NCBI GenBank assembly: GCA_965206595.1
Contig: OZ242214.1
Location: forward strand, 1,376,001-1,440,000
DNA length: 64,000 nt
Direction: 5' to 3'
DNA from: Candidatus Latescibacterota bacterium
GTDB lineage: Bacteria > Latescibacterota > UBA2968 > UBA8231
A program made the translations under genes and the position numbers. Positions 49,551-56,465 of this stretch are shown piece after piece (position 1 is the first letter of the stretch; each line of letters starts with the position of its first letter). The notes beneath the pieces were generated by a model. That model saw only the letters and a program-made list of their open reading frames with translations, did no database searches and had not been told where the DNA came from.

Positions 49551-51755
49551 TCAGAAATACAGTTTGTGCAGCACCCGCAGGTTGCTGCCCGGCTCGGGCA
49601 GGATCTCCTTGACCCGGTTGAGGTGCCTGCGATAGACCGCGTCGGTGGCGTTTTCCAGGCTGGCCGAAAAGGCGTGCAGACGCCCGCGCCAATGGGCGAG
49701 GTATTGCCCGGACAGATCAAGCACGGCGTAGCCGTCGGTCGGTTCCTCGAACTCGCCGGGACGGCCCTGGGCCGCGGCGAGGCGAAGCGCGACAGTGCCG
49801 CTCAGGGATTCCCGCCCGCCGGTCAGGCTGAAACGGCCCTGCAGTGGAGGCATCCGGGGCAGCGGCTCGTCGTCCCGGTCGCTCAACACCCCTCGCACAT
49901 GGCTCGCGGTGACCGCGGTTTCCCAGCTACGCGACAGCTCCCAGTCGACGGCGACCTCGGCACCGCGCATGCGGGCACGTTCCCCGACGGTCCGATACAG
50001 GAACAGGTCGGCGCGCCGCCGACTCTCCTCGCCGGTGTTCCTGGGAAAGATGAAGCCGTCGATGTCGTTGCGGAAAATGGCGAGGTGGAGATGTCCCCCG
50101 GGGTGGTGGTAGTCGGCGAACAGCTCGAGCCCCCGCCCGCGTTCGCTGTCCAGGGCGCCGTTGCCGACTTCGTAGGAGTACGCAGCCAGGTGCGGCCCCT
50201 CCGAGAACAGCTCTTCGATTCCGGGAGCCCGGAAGGTGCGCATCAGGGTCGCGCCCAGGGTCAACGCTTCGGTGGGGCGATAGTGAGCGGACAGGCCGCC
50301 TGACAATCCCGCGAAGTCCCGCCGCTGTATGCGGCCGACCATCCGGGAATCCCGCTCCTCCCGTGGTCGGACGCTGCGAGCGTCTAACCGCACGGCCCCG
50401 TTAGCGGCCCAGGAACCGCGTTCCCACTCCTGGTAGGTGAAGCAAGCCGCGGCGTACTCGGTTGCCGGAGGGGTGAAGCTGAGGCCTGCGGCGGCGTAGT
50501 TGCGGTATTCGTACCAGACCCCGGCGGCGCCGTTCTCGAAGGGACCGACGGGATTCAGGCGGGCGAGACTGGCGAGGTGGTGGGTCAGTACCCCGAACTC
50601 TATGCCCTTTGATCCGCTGGCCTCGAACTCGCCGTGCTGGTAGCGGGAGAAGGTGTGGTGCAGCTCGAGCTGCCTGATCCGGTCGGAAACCGCAAGAAGC
50701 TCGGCGCGCGTTTCCAGGTGCTGGCGTTCGAGCAGGATCGACACCCCAGACGGGTGGGAGCCGATCGGGTCCGGAGGTATGCCGTACTCGGAATCGTAAA
50801 GGCTTCCGGAGAAGCCGAAGTGGCCCCAAGGCTTCACCAGACTGACTCCCAGCGATCCGTTGCCGGTGCGGATGTCGGTGTTGGCAAGGGTGCCTCGCGG
50901 AGTCGAGACATCCCCTGCATGACGCAGGCTGCTGTCGAAGCGCAGAGCGAGCGGTCCCAGCGGCTGTTCGAATGCGAGCCCCGCGGAAAGGCCGCCGGTG
51001 ACGCTTTCCCCCTGCCAGACGAAGGAACCGTTGCGCTGCTGCGGCTGTTCGGAAGGAACGTACCCGCGGACGACGTTGACCACCCCTCCCAAAGCATTGG
51101 AACCGTAGAGGATGGTCTCCGGGCCCCGGATCACCTCGATGCGTTCCGTGGTCATCGGTTCGATCGCCACGGCGTGGTCCGACGATGACGCGGACAGGTC
51201 CCCGGTGCGTTCCCCATCTTCGAGCACGAGCAGGCGGTCGCCGCTCAGTCCGCGCAATACGGGGCGGGAGGGCGCCGGGCCCATGGTTCGCTGCGCCACT
51301 CCTGGTTCAAAGTCAATGGTCTCGGCTATGGTGCGGCTGAGATTCTGACGGAGTTTGCTGCCGCTGAAAACGACTTCGGGTTCGTGAAGCGGGGAGACAG
51401 GCCGCTCGTGCTCATCCTCGACAACGGTCTCCTCCATGTGCAGGGCATCATGTCCGATCTGGAGATCGACGTGGGTTGTGTCTCCCTGCTCGACCCGCAC
51501 CTCGAATCGCGCATCGCGGTATCCGAGGTGCAGCGTCTGCAGGATGTACATCCCCGGGGTCAGGGCGGGAAAAAGGAAATGCCCTTCGCTGTCGCTGACG
51601 CGGCCGTGGTTGATCCCCTCGATGACCACGGTTGCCCAGGGCACCGGGTCGCCGCTGTCGGCGTCGACGACGTGCCCGGCGAGCGCCCCTGTTGCAGCGG
51701 CGTACAGGGGCGCTGCCGACAGGTATGCAGCAAGAGCAAACGTTCGGAAGATCAA
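49551..51755 (-). CDS. TonB-dependent receptor (ZnuD-like metal uptake type) with N-terminal carboxypeptidase-regulatory domain
   Basis: Signal peptide, PSRPVLRGLSGDR, SSDHAV, IEVIRGP..LYG, EELFSEGPH, YRRHL, terminal Phe. Confidence 0.9.
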   Translation of the reverse strand: MIFRTFALAAYLSAAPLYAAATGALAGHVVDADSGDPVPWATVVIEGINHGRVSDSEGHFLFPALTPGMYILQTLHLGYRDARFEVRVEQGDTTHVDLQIGHDALHMEETVVEDEHERPVSPLHEPEVVFSGSKLRQNLSRTIAETIDFEPGVAQRTMGPAPSRPVLRGLSGDRLLVLEDGERTGDLSASSSDHAVAIEPMTTERIEVIRGPETILYGSNALGGVVNVVRGYVPSEQPQQRNGSFVWQGESVTGGLSAGLAFEQPLGPLALRFDSSLRHAGDVSTPRGTLANTDIRTGNGSLGVSLVKPWGHFGFSGSLYDSEYGIPPDPIGSHPSGVSILLERQHLETRAELLAVSDRIRQLELHHTFSRYQHGEFEASGSKGIEFGVLTHHLASLARLNPVGPFENGAAGVWYEYRNYAAAGLSFTPPATEYAAACFTYQEWERGSWAANGAVRLDARSVRPREERDSRMVGRIQRRDFAGLSGGLSAHYRPTEALTLGATLMRTFRAPGIEELFSEGPHLAAYSYEVGNGALDSERGRGLELFADYHHPGGHLHLAIFRNDIDGFIFPRNTGEESRRRADLFLYRTVGERARMRGAEVAVDWELSRSWETAVTASHVRGVLSDRDDEPLPRMPPLQGRFSLTGGRESLSGTVALRLAAAQGRPGEFEEPTDGYAVLDLSGQYLAHWRGRLHAFSASLENATDAVYRRHLNRVKEILPEPGSNLRVLHKLYF

Positions 51756-51761
51756 TCCTTT

Positions 51762-52277
51762 TTAGCCTTCCTCATCGTGATCCTCGTCGGCGTGGGAGTC
51801 CTCAAAGCCCGGACCTCCTTCTTCGACGTGGACTTCAATATCCTTGGAAACGAAGTCGGCGTGGTCGTTGTGGTTGAGCTTGATCACCATGGTGGTCTGC
51901 CCCTCTTCCAGGCCGGAAATGTGGAATGCCCAGGGGCCGTCTTCCTCGTGCTGTTCGATTTCGGCGATGCTTTCGTCGGCGATTTCCCAGTCAAGGGCAT
52001 AGCCGTCGTCCGCGTCCGGGGTGAACAGGTCGCCGTCCTCGGCAATGAAACGCACCGACAGCAGGGGGGTTTCCAGGCCGTGGCCCACTTTGATGTCACC
52101 TTCTGTCTCGCCGTTCTCGTAGCGGACGAGCTCCTCGCCGCTGCCGAAGATGATCAAGCCGAAGGCTTCGGCGTGCTCTTCCCCCTCATGGGGGTCTACG
52201 GGATTGTCGTCGTCGCCACAGCCGGCAAGGAGCAGTGACATGAGAATCGGTGCTGCTGTCGAGATAATCCTGAGCAT
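51762..52277 (-). CDS. His/acidic-rich lipoprotein
   Basis: LLAGC lipobox; HEGEEHAE, HNDHADF, SHADEDHDEE; directly upstream of the TonB receptor. Confidence 0.78.
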   Translation of the reverse strand: MLRIISTAAPILMSLLLAGCGDDDNPVDPHEGEEHAEAFGLIIFGSGEELVRYENGETEGDIKVGHGLETPLLSVRFIAEDGDLFTPDADDGYALDWEIADESIAEIEQHEEDGPWAFHISGLEEGQTTMVIKLNHNDHADFVSKDIEVHVEEGGPGFEDSHADEDHDEEG

Positions 52278-52498
52278 GGTATGGTTCTCCAGGTTGATGT
52301 CCCTGTGACCCGAAGGTCCCGGGGTTGTGATCAATGTGATACCGGTCGGAACAGGCAGGAGACATGGGCCTACCGCCTGTATCCACGCGGGTCGGGTAAG
52401 GAGAACGCATCCGCACCCCGCCGATCCAGATGGCGCGGAAGCGTCGGGCGGTGGCGCCAGGATGGCGGAAAGGGACTACGTGAGGCGAGTGCGGATGC

Positions 52499-52810
52499 TC
52501 AGGTGCGGGGTGGGGCGCGATTCCCGAAAGAATAGCCGCGGAAGAAAAGCGGCGGCGGGACGGACCAGATGACCTGGTGGCGGGTGCGGGGTCCGGCGAG
52601 CAGGAGGGCGAGTGCAAGGATGACGCCGACGAGCAGCACCAAGCTGCTCTCGAGCATGCGGGCCGGGCAGTTTTCCGGTTCGGTCGATCCTGCGTGGAAT
52701 AGCTGATGACCAAACGGGAGTGTAAGGAAAAGTCCGATCAGCAGGGCGGCAAAGCAGAGCACCGCGAGATTCGCGAGCCCTCGACAGCCTCTGTGGTATC
52801 CGGTAAGCAA
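52499..52810 (-). CDS. DUF2946/CruR-like leader protein with C-terminal RAPP motif
   Basis: TM segment, HQLFH..CPA, second hydrophobic segment, ends FGNRAPPRT*; lies upstream of a lipoprotein and TBDR; TTG start uncertain. Confidence 0.65.
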   Translation of the reverse strand: MLTGYHRGCRGLANLAVLCFAALLIGLFLTLPFGHQLFHAGSTEPENCPARMLESSLVLLVGVILALALLLAGPRTRHQVIWSVPPPLFFRGYSFGNRAPPRT

Positions 52811-53459
52811 TGGTCGTCAACCTTGCTGTCAATGTACTCCTGCTGACGGTGAACCGTCAAAGTCGGGCAGGAGGGTCCTCAGTGGCATCCAGTCGGGCGC
52901 GGCCTTACTTCCAACCGGCATCCACCAGGCAGCTCCGTTCGCTCCCGACGCCATTTGGCCAGGGCAGGCTTTGGCAATGCGTAGTTCGGAAAACCATGGT
53001 GCTCGGGGGTGAGAGTCGCTTTGGAGGCGAGAGCGGCCAGCAGACCAAAAGGGGCCACTTAATCTGCTCTGCCAGCGGCGGACAAAGGGCCGGTCCAGCT
53101 GTATGGGAATCCTGCCGGGGACCAACAGCCCCCGGCAATAGTGTTCGTGACCGACGGCATCTACCACACCCTGTCGAGGTTCGCACCTGCTGTTGGGGAA
53201 ATGACCGAGGAGGAGCTGGAGGTTGCCCTGGATGCCATAATGCCTTGCTGAGGGGATTCGATGAAATTCATCAGCGACCGCGCCTGCTCGGATTTGGCAG
53301 CAACAGAGGGAGGCGTTCGTCCCCGCTGTGCCGGCTGCCCTCCCATTGGGCCAGGGCGGCTTTACGGCTGCCTTGTCGTCGCGCTCAATATCAGTCTGCT
53401 ACACTATCGGCGATCGGATTTCGAACGGAAAAGAAACGAAACGACTGGAATGGTTTCTC

Positions 53460-53789: not shown

Positions 53790-54010
53790 GGCTGCGCCCC
53801 TTGCTCGCCGAGCTTCCAGGGGCGCGCTTGGCTATCGTCGGGGGATGCCCGTCCCGGGAGGACCTCGAGCGGTTCTTTGCGGGCACGCCCACGGTGTTCG
53901 TCGGATACCTGCAAGGGGAGGAGCTCGCCCACGCCTACGCCAGCGCCGACCTCTTCGCCTTTCCCTCGGCCAGCGAGACCTTCGGCAACGTCGTCCTCGA
54001 AGCCGCGACC
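53790..54010 (+). pseudogene. Internal fragment of a GT4 glycosyltransferase
   Basis: [36 protein letters not shown]. Confidence 0.7.
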
Positions 54011-54029
54011 TTCCGGCAGTGGCAGGCAT

Positions 54030-56465
54030 TCAATCTGCTTTCGTTTCCTCCGATGCCTCGATCCACGGCGCCAGTTCCGTCCCCAGTCCGGGATCCAACT
54101 CAACGGCTCTTTGGAGGTGGAACAAAGCCTGGTCCCGATGATCCGGGATGGGGGCAAGGATCTGCCCCAGGCCTCCATGGACACGCGCTTGTTTGTCGTC
54201 CAGCTTCAAGGACAGCTCGAGAAACTTAGCAGCATTCTCGTGGCTGTTCTCGCGAAGTGCGATATGCGACAGGAAATTGTACGCCTTGGGAAGTGGATGA
54301 ATCCGGATTGACAACGACAGTAGTTCGGCCGCGGTTACCTTTGCTCCGCGGTCGTATAGATTCAGGGATAGAATTGAATATTGATTCGCCAGCCAGGATG
54401 TATCACTAGTGGGCTGGGAGGCTTGGCGAGCCCCTTCCTCAAGTACGGAAAAGGACAAGCCGGGCAAACCAAGTTCAACCAGACTCATCCCACTTGCCCA
54501 GAAATACAGATACTGAAAGCGATCCACGGTCCCGGTCAGGTACAGTTCCATTGCCTCTTTGTCTGACTGCCCCATCCGCTTCAGAACCTCCGCTTCGACG
54601 AGATGGGCAACCTTCGACTGGGGCAACTGCCTTTTCGCTTCTGAGATCGCCCGCAGGCTCGCGTTGAGGTCCCCTTCCCGAAGGGCGGAAGCCGCGGTTT
54701 CCAGTAAAGGATCGGCACAATACGGGCTTGTCGGCATCCGCTCCTGAAAATGCGTCCAGGCTGCTTGCCACTCTGTTTCATCCTTTCTGAAGACCATGAC
54801 AGCCGGGTGGTCGAAGCCGGTGAACGACGGTTCGCTCCCATCGTCCCGGAATTCCAGGCCGCCGATGGAAGGGTAGTTTTTGAAACGGCGGACCAAGTCA
54901 AAACCCAGATCGCCCTCCACCAGCGCCTCGTATAATGCCGCCCCGCCCGGAATCAGCTCCGGGACTGCGGTGAAATGCTGATAGCGGTTGACGTCGGTGA
55001 TGACGATATAGTCCAGAGCGTCCAACTGCCTCTTCAGCCAATAGAGCTCTCCTTTGCAGGTCGCGAATCCGCGGAATTGGAAGAGCATCAACGTTTGGAA
55101 AGCACCGATTTGGAATTTTGCGGGATCGATCATACCCCGCATGGAGAAGGCGCCCCGTTCGACTCCGATACTGCTGTTGGCCGGGACATGGTCGTTTATC
55201 CACCGGGCAGTCTGGACGCGGCTGTCCTCACGGGTATAGAGGCTGGCAAAGGCAACGCCGTACAGTGCGCTGTACGCGAACACCGCGGCGCAGATGCCGA
55301 CGGCGAGCATGCGCACCCGGACGAAGCGGGGAGAGCGGACGAACCAGACGCAGAAGTCGGCTGCCAATAGGGCGAGGAAAGGGAGCAGGGGCAGGAGATA
55401 CCGTATGTGCTTGGTATGCAGGCCGCCGATCAGGAAAAAGTAGATCCCCGCCCAGAGCAGGATAAGTCCATTTCGATGGTTCCTTTTCCAAAGGCCGCGG
55501 GATATCCCGAGAAGGAAGAGGAGGGTAAGAGGCCAGCCCACTCCCAGGGGCCACAGGTGGGTCCAATAATGCAGGTATGGGACGGTGTGAACATCCACCA
55601 GGCTCCAGGGAACGAGACGCTCTCCCCGAGCCACTATCATCGAATATCCCAGGTCGTCGGAGGAATGGGCCCGGAAAATCAGGTCCCAGTCCGTAACGAG
55701 AAACGGCTGGAGCGCCAGCAGGGCCAGCACCGCGGCGAGACCTGCCATCCAAATCCGGGGTGCCAGGACTGCCTTCAGGTGTCGCTGGCGAACCAGATGG
55801 CCGGCCAGCAGCACGAGCCCCACCGACAGGCCGATCAGGCGGACGGCCCCACTGAGCCCTATCAGAAAACCGGACCATATGAACCACCGCCTGTCATCCT
55901 TTTCTAGTGCATTCAAAAGGGCGTGAACCGCGGCCAGGACAAGCAGAGCGAACAGCCCGTCGACGGTGTAGAAATGGGCGAGCTGGATCGCCAGCGGGGC
56001 TACGGCAACGATGAAGACAGCTAGCAGCCCGGTCAGCTCACCGAACCAGCGAACCCCGGCCAGCCAGACCAGGTACAGCGTCAGGCAGGAGACCAGCACC
56101 GCAAGGGTGCGGGCAGTGAGATATACATACCGGACATCATCGGGCGATTCCTGAGATTTGAAGTCGCGGCCGAGAACGATCCGGTTGAGCTCCAGGAAGC
56201 CCCGCAAGAGATAGACAGGGAGCGTGCCGTAGCTGGTCAGCTCTGGGGCGAACGGGTCGATGGGACCCAGGGCAGCCTGGACGAGAGTGGTTTCATCCGG
56301 ATGGAAATGGTAGAATGCTCTGTCGCCTGTGGACTGGTTTGGTCCAGGCAGCACGAAGGAGCTGTCCCCCCGGGTCAACCCTGCGAAGCGCAGCGAGCAG
56401 CCCAGTACGAGGCATATAGCCAGAAAGAGGGAAGGGACTCGGGTTTTCTTTCTATGTCCACTCAT
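54030..56465 (-). CDS. GT-C membrane glycosyltransferase (GT39/ArnT-like) with C-terminal TPR repeats
   Basis: FHPDE, YGTLP, AHFYTVD, RYLLP, DHP motifs; many TM segments; TPR-like [11 protein letters not shown]. Confidence 0.82.

Follow-up and report, generated by a model that had tools for sequence, protein, structure and literature searches.

A conserved leader ORF ending in RAPP precedes a His-rich lipoprotein and a ZnuD-like TonB receptor in a Latescibacterota bacterium: a candidate metal-sensing translational switch

The window analysed here, a 64,000-nucleotide stretch from the genome of an uncultured, sponge-associated bacterium, carries on its minus strand a leader ORF of 103 codons plus stop with a TTG start (52499..52810, from the ORF list). 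It is followed after a spacer of 221 nt by the ATG (52277) of a His-rich lipoprotein gene and, 6 nt past the lipoprotein stop, by the start of a TonB-dependent receptor gene. This arrangement and its spacing agree with the original prediction, which had placed the leader in a controlling position ahead of a His-rich lipoprotein and a ZnuD-like receptor, and the ORF of about 100 aa with two hydrophobic stretches, HQLFH-x8-C and RAPP can be read directly from the sequence as described there. The genes and the parts of the leader are as follows:

52831..52860, minus strand: promoter-like site TTGACG, 18 nt, TACATT (consensus match only)
52499..52810, minus strand: leader ORF, 103 codons plus stop, TTG start (kept in frame, length, motifs)
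52718..52777, minus strand: first hydrophobic segment, about residues 12-31, after Arg7 and Arg10 (hydropathy)
52667..52708, minus strand: candidate metal-binding loop H35-x3-H39-x4-E44-x-E46-x-C48 (residue conservation)
52592..52657, minus strand: second hydrophobic segment, about residues 52-73, then P-R-T-R-H (hydropathy)
52520..52567, minus strand: conserved stretch before RAPP, S-x-P-L-P-L-F-F-x-G-x4-N (consensus of 14 loci)
52508..52519, minus strand: RAPP arrest motif, codons 98-101 (sequence and conservation)
51762..52277, minus strand: acidic His-rich lipoprotein, 171 aa (ORF, homologues, structure prediction)
49551..51755, minus strand: TonB-dependent receptor, ZnuD-like, 734 aa (ORF, Pfam, NCBIfam, structure match)

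In the leader, H35-Q-L-F-H39 is followed by eight residues and then by C48-P-A-R, and the codons of R98-A-P-P101 (52519-52508) are followed by R102, T103 and TGA (52501-52499). Hydropathy exceeds 1.6 over residues 8-38 and 48-77 (Kyte-Doolittle, 19-residue window); the positive-inside rule suggests an N-in orientation of the first segment, and the second is common to all 14 aligned leaders. About 18 residues ahead of RAPP are also conserved in the 14-locus alignment; the consensus stretch listed above (52520..52567) would be inside the exit tunnel during the proposed stall.

The leader ORF is a real gene and more than a chance reading frame, because the frame stays open in 13 further loci (27-88% identity) and the key residues are invariant there: M1, P32, H35, H39, C48, R98, P100 and P101 are shared by all 14 aligned loci, and 12 of the 13 other loci have ATG at the position of the window's TTG start. 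The gene has homologues in 52 of the 168 genomes from its phylum, which source labels give as Latescibacterota, and in 49 of 75 genomes of its own family, and a search of 1.84 billion protein representatives gave 50 clusters at E<=0.001. Among 43 divergent cluster representatives, H35, C48 and the Pro-Pro pair (P100-P101) are invariant, H39 is kept in at least 90%, and all 43 carry R/K-[AGPS]-P-P; RAPP or RGPP itself is present in 40 of the 41 unique leaders. Spacing is similarly constrained, with 49 residues from Cys to Arg in 33/41 leaders and 30/43 representatives, and a two-residue tail after the prolines in 34/41 leaders. The residue at C+3 varies (among the 41 leaders, Cys 14 times, His and Tyr nine times each and Arg four times; Cys in 5/43 representatives), so that the earlier view of CXXC being reduced to CPAR holds. 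The His/His/Cys set, RAPP and its distances from the Cys and from the stop are thus conserved across the 14 loci, the 41 leaders and the 43 representatives. Tandem paralogous leaders exist, which differ in Cys/His content. The 34, 93 and 23 leader homologues listed carry no precomputed Pfam label; the family is unannotated in public resources, and its genes are called hypothetical or missed.

The genes behind the leader are for metal uptake. The lipoprotein has the lipobox LLAGC and six His residues that are invariant in 11 homologues, and it is predicted as an Ig-like beta-sandwich with an acidic His-rich tail (AlphaFold2 mean pLDDT 82.2). Scans of Pfam and NCBIfam assigned it to no family, and a comparison of its fold with the PDB returned generic Ig-like matches, none of them metal-specific. 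The receptor shows an N-terminal CarboxypepD_reg domain, a Plug and a barrel (Pfam); its top NCBIfam match is ZnuD, with 152.9 bits far under the model cut-off of 950, and among solved chains ZnuD (4rdr, E 7.4e-32) is the closest, compared with E 4.9e-16 for OprC. A Pfam-confirmed TonB receptor lies downstream of the leader on the same strand in 16 loci, and the spacer to the next gene measures 150-231 nt in 11 loci; within the stretch examined, no receptor was found at five leader loci (L013, L017, L018, L070 and L078). Across loci, leader-headed operons contain the lipoprotein, TonB receptors, an ABC system and COG0523 GTPases. The expectation that homologues with HxxxH, C and RAPP would precede TonB receptors was supported by the invariant residues in 14 loci and the receptors downstream at 16, and neighbour scans place the leader at the head of other metal-uptake operons too.

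These neighbours point to zinc as the most likely metal. ZnuD was the top NCBIfam match for five of the six receptors scanned (all scores far below the model cut-off), with TonB-copper giving lower scores than ZnuD. A neighbouring COG0523 GTPase is ZigA-like (404.8 bits on a truncated copy vs 144 for CobW), and an AztC/AztB-like ABC system is also found among the neighbours. Genes for PepSY (PepSY_TM), YcnI, PCu(A)C, CopC or OprC-type proteins were not detected among the downstream ORFs scanned. The L021 receptor scores 146.9 bits for the haem-receptor family vs 82.9 for ZnuD, and in one operon the leader is followed by an SO_0444-family permease and then a COG0523 GTPase; the SO_0444 family name stands for Cu/Zn efflux. 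The original prediction had named Zn, Ni or Co as possible ligands: the zinc part gains from neighbours that are of zinc rather than copper type, but Ni and Co received no specific support. Of 76 genomes of the family, only 23 have a Fur-family gene, and none was found in the window's own 7.05-Mb single-contig genome.

Between leader and lipoprotein, the RNA contains several predicted elements:

52495..52503, minus strand: 5' arm of helix P1, across the leader stop codon, CCUGAGCAU (predicted pairing)
52269..52277, minus strand: 3' arm of helix P1, lipoprotein start codon plus two codons, AUGCUCAGG (predicted pairing)
52407..52498, minus strand: hairpin P2 immediately 3' of the stop, GCAUCCGCAC ... 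GUGCGGAUGC (predicted fold)
52400..52408, minus strand: anti-Shine-Dalgarno stretch GCGUUCUCC, abutting P2 (predicted pairing)
52284..52290, minus strand: lipoprotein Shine-Dalgarno GGAGAAC (sequence)
52419..52636, minus strand: C>G bubble, rut-like, on the mRNA strand (C minus G profile)

In 25 of 35 unique loci, pairing of the stop region with the next start is stronger than in at least 95% of shuffled sequences; the other 10 loci show no significant duplex. Across loci, this duplex is reached by at least six different sequence solutions. For 12 representatives, cognate pairs average -15.9 vs -11.2 kcal/mol for non-cognate pairs (0 of 20000 permutations as low); two of the 12 rank poorly in this test. 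A hairpin after the stop followed by an anti-SD-like stretch is present in 23/35 loci, with compensated stem changes between clades. Because the helices are invariant within the window's own clade, where 0 of 24 predicted pairs covary, the covariation evidence rests on the between-clade comparison. With the footprint of a stalled ribosome masked in the model, the start-codon segment of the window had an unpaired probability of 0.39 instead of 0.07; for three relatives the values were 0.55-0.71 with the mask and 0.11-0.21 without it. The modelled equilibrium fold of the window RNA keeps the Shine-Dalgarno paired with the anti-Shine-Dalgarno despite the mask (unpaired 0.00), and mean accessibility of the whole start region goes from 0.27 to 0.26, which is no rise; a gain above 0.1 was seen in only nine of the 17 loci modelled. 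A C>G bubble (C minus G >=22 points in 78-nt windows) covers the leader 3' end in 14/14 loci and also extends over the first 80 nt of the spacer; 78-nt windows as C-rich as the peak in the window's own locus make up 0.16% of the 64 kb. The bubble is partly forced by Pro, Ala and Arg codons. The genome has a Rho gene, and no intrinsic terminator was found. Both the predicted pairing and the bubble are compatible with stall-dependent control.

The closest described system is CruR (Bp2923) of Bordetella pertussis, likewise a small first operon gene with an N-terminal export or membrane segment (PMC9426467). CruR stalls with its P and A sites both occupied by Pro codons (PMC12992588); the stalled ribosome blocks Rho, and once metal releases the stall, Rho-dependent termination follows in the spacer (PMC9426467). 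From the Cys metal motif to RAPP there are 45 residues in CruR and, counted from C+3, 46 in the leader; in both, the stop comes two to three residues after RAPP, the spacer is long (162 nt in CruR, 221 nt for the leader), the 3' end has a C>G bubble, and a TonB receptor gene follows. In contrast to the CXXC of CruR, the invariant candidate ligands of the leader are His, His and one Cys. Unlike CruR, the leader also has a second hydrophobic segment between sensor and RAPP, a lipoprotein gene between itself and the receptor, and a stop region complementary to the start region of the gene that follows. The neighbours are of zinc type for the leader and of copper type for CruR, and the two come from different phyla (Latescibacterota and Proteobacteria). 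CruR belongs with DUF2946 proteins, for which 45 plus or minus 1-2 residues between CXXC and RAPP and the partners PepSY, YcnI, PCu(A)C and OprC-type genes have been described (PMC9426467).

A search of the leader against the DUF2946 model (PF11162), the family raised by the original prediction, placed it outside: the window leader gave no Pfam match at E<=1, and with the gathering cut-off of 23.7 bits as the criterion there was no member in the 151 genomes of the phylum searched (top scores 23.0, 22.5 and 22.4 bits; own genome 14.3 bits). One of the 14 leader loci matched with E 0.044, and four of 50 leader representatives scored 11-19 bits; all sub-threshold matches cover one common region of the model, from positions 47-59 to 117. 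Comparison by hhalign of 43 leader representatives with five DUF2946 proteins taken from two plasmid records, of which four pass the Pfam cut-off and one narrowly misses it with 21.7 bits, returned a probability of 1.3% and E 0.039 over 20 columns around the Cys, with the reference set being small. Two of these five proteins lack the second Cys too. DUF2946 membership was thus not supported, although the small reference alignment leaves room for a distant kinship. Judged by sequence, the leader is from an unnamed family with CruR architecture and is not Pfam DUF2946.

On balance, the leader is probably a cis-acting, CruR-like translational switch that senses another metal, most likely zinc; the stall, topology, metal, direction of control and dominant output that we infer would be as follows. 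The leader product would insert into the inner membrane with both termini inside (N-in and C-in), forming a hairpin whose sensor loop of His35, His39 and Cys48 faces the periplasm. RAPP and RGPP are described as the strongest known stalling motifs of their class (PMC12992588), and the ribosome would stall at R98-A-P-P101, the two Pro codons occupying its P and A sites. At this point 52-65 residues would separate the sensor loop from the peptidyl-transferase centre, and the second hydrophobic segment would only just be emerging from the tunnel. The stalled ribosome would cover the last leader codons and the stop codon, a stretch that is otherwise predicted to pair with the lipoprotein start region and that also lies within the C-rich, G-poor, Rho-loading-like stretch. 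Since the ribosome would sit on the pairing stretch inside this Rho-like site, the stall may keep the lipoprotein and receptor genes on because the start codon is freed, because Rho is excluded, or for both reasons. Metal on the loop, most likely zinc, would compact it or make the second segment insert, and the added pull would release the stall; translation would then end two codons on, and the operon would be off when metal is sufficient.

Control through Rho by pure CruR-type attenuation, with the stall acting just as a Rho block and the helices as spacer structure or pause signals, is an unlikely competitor. The bubble in all 14 loci over leader 3' end and early spacer, the presence of Rho together with the lack of a detected intrinsic terminator, the mechanism established for CruR (PMC9426467) and the modelled stall in the window, which does not free the Shine-Dalgarno, all fit it. 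It leaves unexplained, however, why six or more sequence solutions keep the complementarity of stop and start, and why an anti-Shine-Dalgarno follows the hairpin in 23/35 loci. A Rho output and a start-codon output are not mutually exclusive. There is also a rather low probability that the same switch responds to copper, as CruR and CutF do, or to Ni, Co, Fe or haem instead of zinc. His and Cys bind Cu too, CxxC is present in 14/41 leaders, a Cu/Zn permease of the SO_0444 family stands within one operon, the L021 receptor scores best as a haem-receptor type, the window receptor has its weaker similarity to OprC, and tandem leaders with differing Cys/His content suggest more than one sensed ligand. 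In contrast, PepSY, YcnI, PCu(A)C and OprC-type neighbours were not seen in the loci scanned, and the ZigA-like and AztC-like neighbours together with ZnuD-like receptors favour zinc.

Explanations that do without metal sensing fare worse. That the leader provides stall-based coupling or monitors membrane insertion, as MifM, ApdA and ApdP do, appears quite improbable: two hydrophobic segments with a C-terminal RAPP do resemble substrates for monitoring Sec or YidC (PMC7897499, PMC10987492), and helix P1 would be opened by any ribosome crossing the stop region, but the downstream genes are for metal uptake instead of Sec or YidC components, and the invariant residues outside RAPP are the loop His and Cys at a fixed distance from the arrest site. 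Least credible of all is a stable small membrane protein that aids the transporter as metal chaperone or accessory subunit, with RAPP lacking a regulatory role. Conservation, two membrane segments, metal-type residues and coverage by RNA-library contigs would suit such a protein, yet 34/41 leaders place R-[AG]-P-P exactly two residues ahead of the stop, this motif class is reported to be strongly avoided in proteomes (PMC12992588), and the long spacer and the stop-region pairing would be left without a role.

The proposed switch shares features with other arrest systems. In CutF of Rhodobacter capsulatus (bioRxiv 10.1101/2025.02.05.636593; PMC9973294), as described there, an exported nascent peptide also senses a periplasmic metal, the stall also occurs at a C-terminal proline motif, and the stalled ribosome also opens an mRNA structure shielding the next ribosome-binding site. 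CutF uses CXXXC and an EF-P-dependent PPP where the leader has RAPP, and high copper turns a detoxifying oxidase on (bioRxiv 10.1101/2025.02.05.636593); the opposite polarity is expected for the leader because the regulated genes are for uptake. In SecM-secA, MifM-yidC2 and ApdA/ApdP, the stall likewise falls on a RAPP- or RAGP-type motif close to the C-terminus, pulling on the nascent chain relieves it, and the stalled ribosome unmasks the downstream start (PMC7897499, PMC10951233, PMC10987492). However, these monitors regulate the Sec or YidC machinery, in contrast to the metal-uptake genes behind the leader, which has the conserved His and Cys in addition. Small RAPP/RGPP ORFs with a localisation signal are over-represented before TonB receptor and metal-homeostasis genes in many phyla, and their conserved Cys and His were proposed as metal sensors (Fujiwara et al. 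2025, PMC12992588). The leader falls into this general class, for which we found no zinc case in the published account. The suggestion that such control might be undescribed thus stands in part: RAPP/RGPP ORFs before TonB receptors have been published (PMC12992588), but our literature search found no zinc-responsive RAPP-type leader. A search by annotation of downstream genes could miss the leader, its next gene being an unannotated lipoprotein. According to the CruR authors, no riboswitch for Cu or Zn is known (PMC9426467).

If the switch operates as proposed, zinc uptake would be set by the leader in a lineage where most genomes are without a Fur-family regulator, offering an explanation for the control of zinc import in bacteria without Zur. 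To our knowledge, nascent arrest peptides have so far been shown to sense just one transition metal, copper (CruR, CutF), and a zinc-sensing leader would extend nascent-peptide control to a second metal. The most far-reaching version, which we put forward tentatively, is that of a first zinc-responsive nascent-peptide sensor: a membrane hairpin that reads periplasmic zinc via His-His-Cys while still attached to the ribosome and thereby sets zinc uptake, with tandem paralogues giving graded or multi-metal control. The system would be compact (about 100 codons and a 220-nt spacer), with clear mutational predictions for ligands, arrest motif and RNA helices. As for its transcription, the promoter-like site lies about 20 nt upstream of the leader start, with two sites found vs 0.3 expected, and the hexamers TTGACG/TACATT also occur upstream of the leaders in the two closest relatives, L015 and L009.

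On re-reading of the sequence, the ORF, its HQLFH-x8-C stretch, both hydrophobic stretches, the RAPP motif and the downstream genes all proved to be as the original prediction had described them. The leader comprises the following elements:

52499-52810, minus strand: leader ORF of 103 codons with a TTG start (sequence reading)
about residues 12-31, minus strand: first hydrophobic segment (hydropathy scan)
H35-Q-L-F-H39, eight residues, then C48-P-A-R, minus strand: candidate sensor stretch (sequence)
about residues 52-73, minus strand: second hydrophobic segment (hydropathy scan)
52519-52508, minus strand: arrest motif R98-A-P-P101, followed by Arg, Thr and TGA

Judged by its conservation, the leader ORF is a gene. 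With the protein as query, 13 of 41 related genomes proved to have this frame open (E <1e-4). In 13 further loci, it begins with a start codon located 31-45 residues ahead of the first His and ends with a stop soon after R-[AG]-P-P; 12 of these 13 loci have ATG at the position of the window's TTG start. In an alignment of 14 leaders (27-88% identity to the window copy) M1, P32, H35, H39, C48, R98, P100 and P101 are invariant, which covers the His pair, the Cys and all but the second residue of the arrest motif whose conservation in homologues the original prediction had singled out. Using a profile of this alignment, we found the leader gene in 52 of 168 phylum genomes; by family, it is present in 49 of 75 genomes of the window's own family, in 2 of 13 of a second family and in none of the others. 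The same profile retrieved 50 clusters at E<=0.001 from 1.84 billion cluster representatives, and among 43 representatives H35, C48 and both Pro residues are still invariant, with P32 and H39 retained in at least 90%. The homologues listed are all annotated as "hypothetical protein" and none has a Pfam label; they come with source labels of Candidatus Latescibacterota or Latescibacteria, the most distant with Candidatus Omnitrophica.

The distance from the Cys to the Arg of the arrest motif is 49 residues in 33 of 41 unique leaders from phylum genomes (range 46-55) and in 30 of the 43 representatives (range 47-51), and the tail after Pro-Pro consists of two residues in 34 and 23 of them, respectively. 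The motif itself reads RAPP (21), RGPP (19) or RPPP (1) in the unique leaders and RAPP (29), KAPP (6), RGPP (5), RPPP (2) or RSPP (1) in the representatives. The six with K-A-P-P in place of R-A-P-P are the most distant, AT-rich members (proteins P0059-P0066 and others, with Candidatus Omnitrophica labels). Since the residue at C+3 varies (C in 14, H in 9, Y in 9, R in 4 and others in 5 of the 41 leaders), the Arg of the window represents a minority state. The approximately 18 residues ahead of RAPP are also conserved in the 14-sequence alignment (consensus S-x-P-L-P-L-F-F-x-G-x4-N), as would be expected of residues that occupy the exit tunnel while the ribosome is stalled.

CruR, the copper sensor of Bordetella, is defined in PMC9426467 by CXXC set 45 plus or minus 1-2 residues ahead of a C-terminal RAPP; further marks are an export signal, the lead position in its operon, a C>G bubble and a long spacer. 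Our leader shows a detailed architectural likeness to CruR including this spacing, which amounts to 46 residues when counted from C+3. The suggested link to the CruR family DUF2946 (PF11162) found no comparable backing: the window leader does not match the Pfam model, none of 151 phylum genomes has a match above the cut-off of 23.7 bits, and weak matches of 11-19 bits occur in 1 of 14 and 4 of 50 relatives. Five of seven near-threshold matches inspected are further members of the leader family with CxxC and an R-[AG]-P-P end. For a profile comparison by hhalign, five DUF2946 proteins were taken from two plasmid records; four of them exceed the Pfam cut-off and one falls just short of it. Against these, the leader profile reached a probability of 1.3% and an E of 0.039 with just 20 columns aligned around the Cys, and none of three homologue searches returned a PF11162-labelled homologue. 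The ESM Atlas yielded only unnamed clusters, the nearest named one being DUF2946 (50% of its members) at a score of 0.91, which we treat as a lead only. On these results, we do not assign the leader to DUF2946; by analogy, it would resemble CruR in its working on paper, though it is not classed in that family. A Novosphingobium plasmid (NZ_CP039697.1, loci L086 and L088) carries two DUF2946 genes, one over and one just under the Pfam cut-off, whose proteins have a single Cys (C-A-F-A, C-P-F-S), then a hydrophobic stretch and an R-[AG]-P-P end; DUF2946 therefore also includes members without CXXC.

Two genes follow the leader in the window:

ATG at 52277, minus strand: lipoprotein gene, 221 nt past the leader stop, lipobox LLAGC
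6 nt past the lipoprotein stop, minus strand: TonB-dependent receptor of 734 aa with CarboxypepD_reg, Plug and barrel domains

Comparison with homologues revealed six invariant His residues and an acidic His-rich tail in the lipoprotein. Its predicted fold, an Ig-like sandwich (pLDDT 82.2), was discarded as a clue to the metal, as Foldseek against the PDB returned generic Ig-like domains only (TM-score <=0.49). In 16 leader loci (the one in the window, then sets of seven and eight), a Pfam-confirmed receptor is encoded downstream in the same orientation, mostly after a lipoprotein of 165-193 aa, and five leader loci have none in the stretch examined. The closest solved chain to the window receptor is ZnuD (E 7.4e-32), with OprC at 4.9e-16; ZnuD is also the best NCBIfam match for five of six receptors scanned, always far under the model cut-off, and one of the receptors scores higher as a haem-receptor type. 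Three further layouts occur. Locus L021 comprises leader, receptor, lipoprotein and a COG0523 GTPase, which scores 404.8 bits for ZigA vs 144.2 for CobW in a copy truncated by the contig end. In locus L013 (G022:C16), the genes after the leader encode, in this order, an unknown protein of 380 aa, a binding protein resembling AztC (AztC 107 bits, MntC 88.9), an AztB-like permease, a PerR-like regulator and a catalase; its Fur-family gene was not counted as Zur, as it scores PerR-like and adjoins the catalase gene. Locus L079 (G137:C1:2602000-2610200) has the order leader, lipoprotein, second leader, ZnuD-like receptor, a Cu/Zn permease of the SO_0444 family (329.4 bits, over the cut-off of 300) and a COG0523 GTPase. 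PepSY, YcnI, PCu(A)C and OprC-type genes were not seen in the leader loci scanned. Of the proposal of a variant attenuator sensing Zn, Ni or Co, the zinc part fares well with these zinc-type neighbours: zinc is the best reading of the metal from the neighbouring genes, with copper, which the proposal had not included, ranked second.

In L013 and L031 (G043:C2), a secreted protein of 380-402 aa without a Pfam or NCBIfam family follows the leader in place of the lipoprotein, and this protein may be an outer-membrane channel. Two paralogous leaders share one operon in L079 and in further loci of genus g14. C-P-A-Y stands in the first copy; the second has C-P-A-C plus an additional Cys and His, and an (HGS)n insert occurs in one copy. 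Such pairs could represent two sensors with different ligands or affinities.

Concerning the sensing step, the charge pattern with Arg7 and Arg10 ahead of the first segment, an acidic loop and P-R-T-R-H after the second segment would, under the positive-inside rule, place both termini inside and the His/His/Cys loop outside. At the stall, the sensor loop would be 52-65 residues and the end of the second segment about 27 residues away from the peptidyl-transferase centre. From force profiles of membrane insertion and from zinc-dependent folding that releases a SecM stall, insertion or folding at such distances can reportedly pull on the chain. The distances in the leader would suit such pulling and thus, as we infer by analogy, make a metal-dependent release of its stall plausible. 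Release by metal, as also proposed for CruR (PMC9426467), would mean that the uptake genes are on under metal scarcity, which is the expected polarity. In contrast, the opposite polarity exists in CutF, the copper-responsive arrest peptide of Rhodobacter capsulatus (bioRxiv 10.1101/2025.02.05.636593).

The spacer between leader and lipoprotein measures 150-231 nt in 11 loci, and GGAG(A) is found 8-9 bases ahead of the lipoprotein ATG in 10 of them. Folding of the RNA from the last codons of the leader through the lipoprotein start predicted three helices:

52503-52495 with 52277-52269, minus strand: helix P1, across the leader stop, pairing with the first three codons (start codon included) of the lipoprotein gene
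52498-52489 with 52416-52407, minus strand: hairpin P2, directly after the stop
52408-52400 with 52290-52284, minus strand: helix P3, just past P2, pairing with the Shine-Dalgarno sequence

RNAalifold with 11 sequences of the window's clade recovered these helices, though with covariation in 0 of 24 pairs, because the helix stretches are invariant there while their surroundings vary. Between clades, stop-region and start-region sequences differ yet remain complementary, with at least six sequence solutions. Of 35 unique loci, 25 have a duplex of both regions that outscores 95% of shuffled versions, and the post-stop hairpin changes with compensation between clades and is followed by an anti-SD-like stretch in 23 of 35, counts over related loci that overstate independence. 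Pairing all against all in a 12 by 12 matrix gave a mean of -15.9 kcal/mol for cognate pairs vs -11.2 for non-cognate ones; the cognate partner ranks first in its column in 5 of 12 cases and within the top three in 10, and 0 of 20000 permutations reach the cognate sum. At the sequence level, the distinct solutions are a stronger argument for pairing than the locus counts.

The leading edge of a ribosome lies about 15-16 nt from the P-site codon. For the CruR stall, the third and fourth motif codons were placed in the P and A sites (PMC12992588). A ribosome stalled in a CruR-like register would shield both tail codons and the stop codon plus one to three further bases, and thereby most of the P1 5' arm, which would account for a tail that so often has exactly two codons. 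When this footprint was masked in a partition-function model, the start-codon segment became more likely to be unpaired: the probability rose from 0.07 to 0.39 for the window and, in three relatives, from 0.12 to 0.55, from 0.11 to 0.59 and from 0.21 to 0.71. In the same model, the Shine-Dalgarno sequence of the window is still paired (unpaired 0.00), and accessibility averaged over the entire start region increased by >0.1 in only 9 of 17 loci. The RNA evidence thus speaks for a connection of the stall site with the start site downstream, and taken alone falls short of demonstrating full unmasking.

Rho-dependent termination could provide another output. Over 52419-52636, the mRNA strand has an excess of C over G of at least 22 points that peaks at +29; windows as C-rich as this peak account for 0.16% of the 64 kb. 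The bubble is found at the same place in 14 of 14 loci; the bias is partly imposed by Pro, Ala and Arg codons. Together with the presence of a Rho gene and no intrinsic terminator found, this would match the CruR mechanism by analogy. Rho output and start-site unmasking can also operate together.

That such control may be undescribed in this lineage, as the original prediction had supposed, is only partly tenable. The principle of copper arrest peptides is published for CruR (PMC9426467) and CutF (bioRxiv 10.1101/2025.02.05.636593), and PMC12992588 already reports a broad occurrence of RAPP/RGPP small ORFs ahead of TonB receptor and metal genes. Neither a zinc-responsive arrest peptide nor any mention of the leader family turned up in a full-text literature search; its scope was the articles proper, and the supplementary lists of PMC12992588 and PMC9426467 may include the family. 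What appears new is an unannotated leader family with a candidate His-His-Cys sensor, two predicted membrane segments, a new phylum and zinc-type partners.

With regard to expression, Logan contigs of 316 and 362 nt from two sponge metatranscriptome runs of one study cover the leader ORF at about 93-94% identity, extend about 26 nt past it and then diverge from the window. As metatranscriptome libraries may contain DNA and contigs reveal neither transcript ends nor levels, the coverage hints only weakly at transcription of the leader in a related strain. A short transcript read from the contig ends was not accepted, since the contigs show no ends.

The lineage of the leader family is mostly without Fur-family regulators: only 23 of 76 genomes of the window's family have such a gene, and none (PF01475, E<=0.001) was found in the window's own genome, a single contig of 7.05 Mb with an estimated completeness of 92.9%. 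By coordinates, several of those Fur-family genes sit 5-25 kb from a leader locus (e.g. in genomes G117, G158 and G002). The window's genome has a single ZnuA-type ABC locus (L063), with no leader upstream. No Zur-type box was identified upstream of the leader, in agreement with the lack of an evident Zur/Fur-like box in the original prediction. At 52844-52859 (minus strand), a perfect inverted repeat of 7+7 nt, its arms 2 nt apart, overlaps the -35 hexamer of the promoter-like site and was considered as an operator; it is not retained in the closest relative, was therefore rejected as a conserved operator and probably arose by chance. Further upstream, the otherwise gene-poor stretch contains a 142-aa ORF (53801-54229, plus strand), which by eye looks like the C-terminal part of a glycosyltransferase and is possibly a gene remnant.
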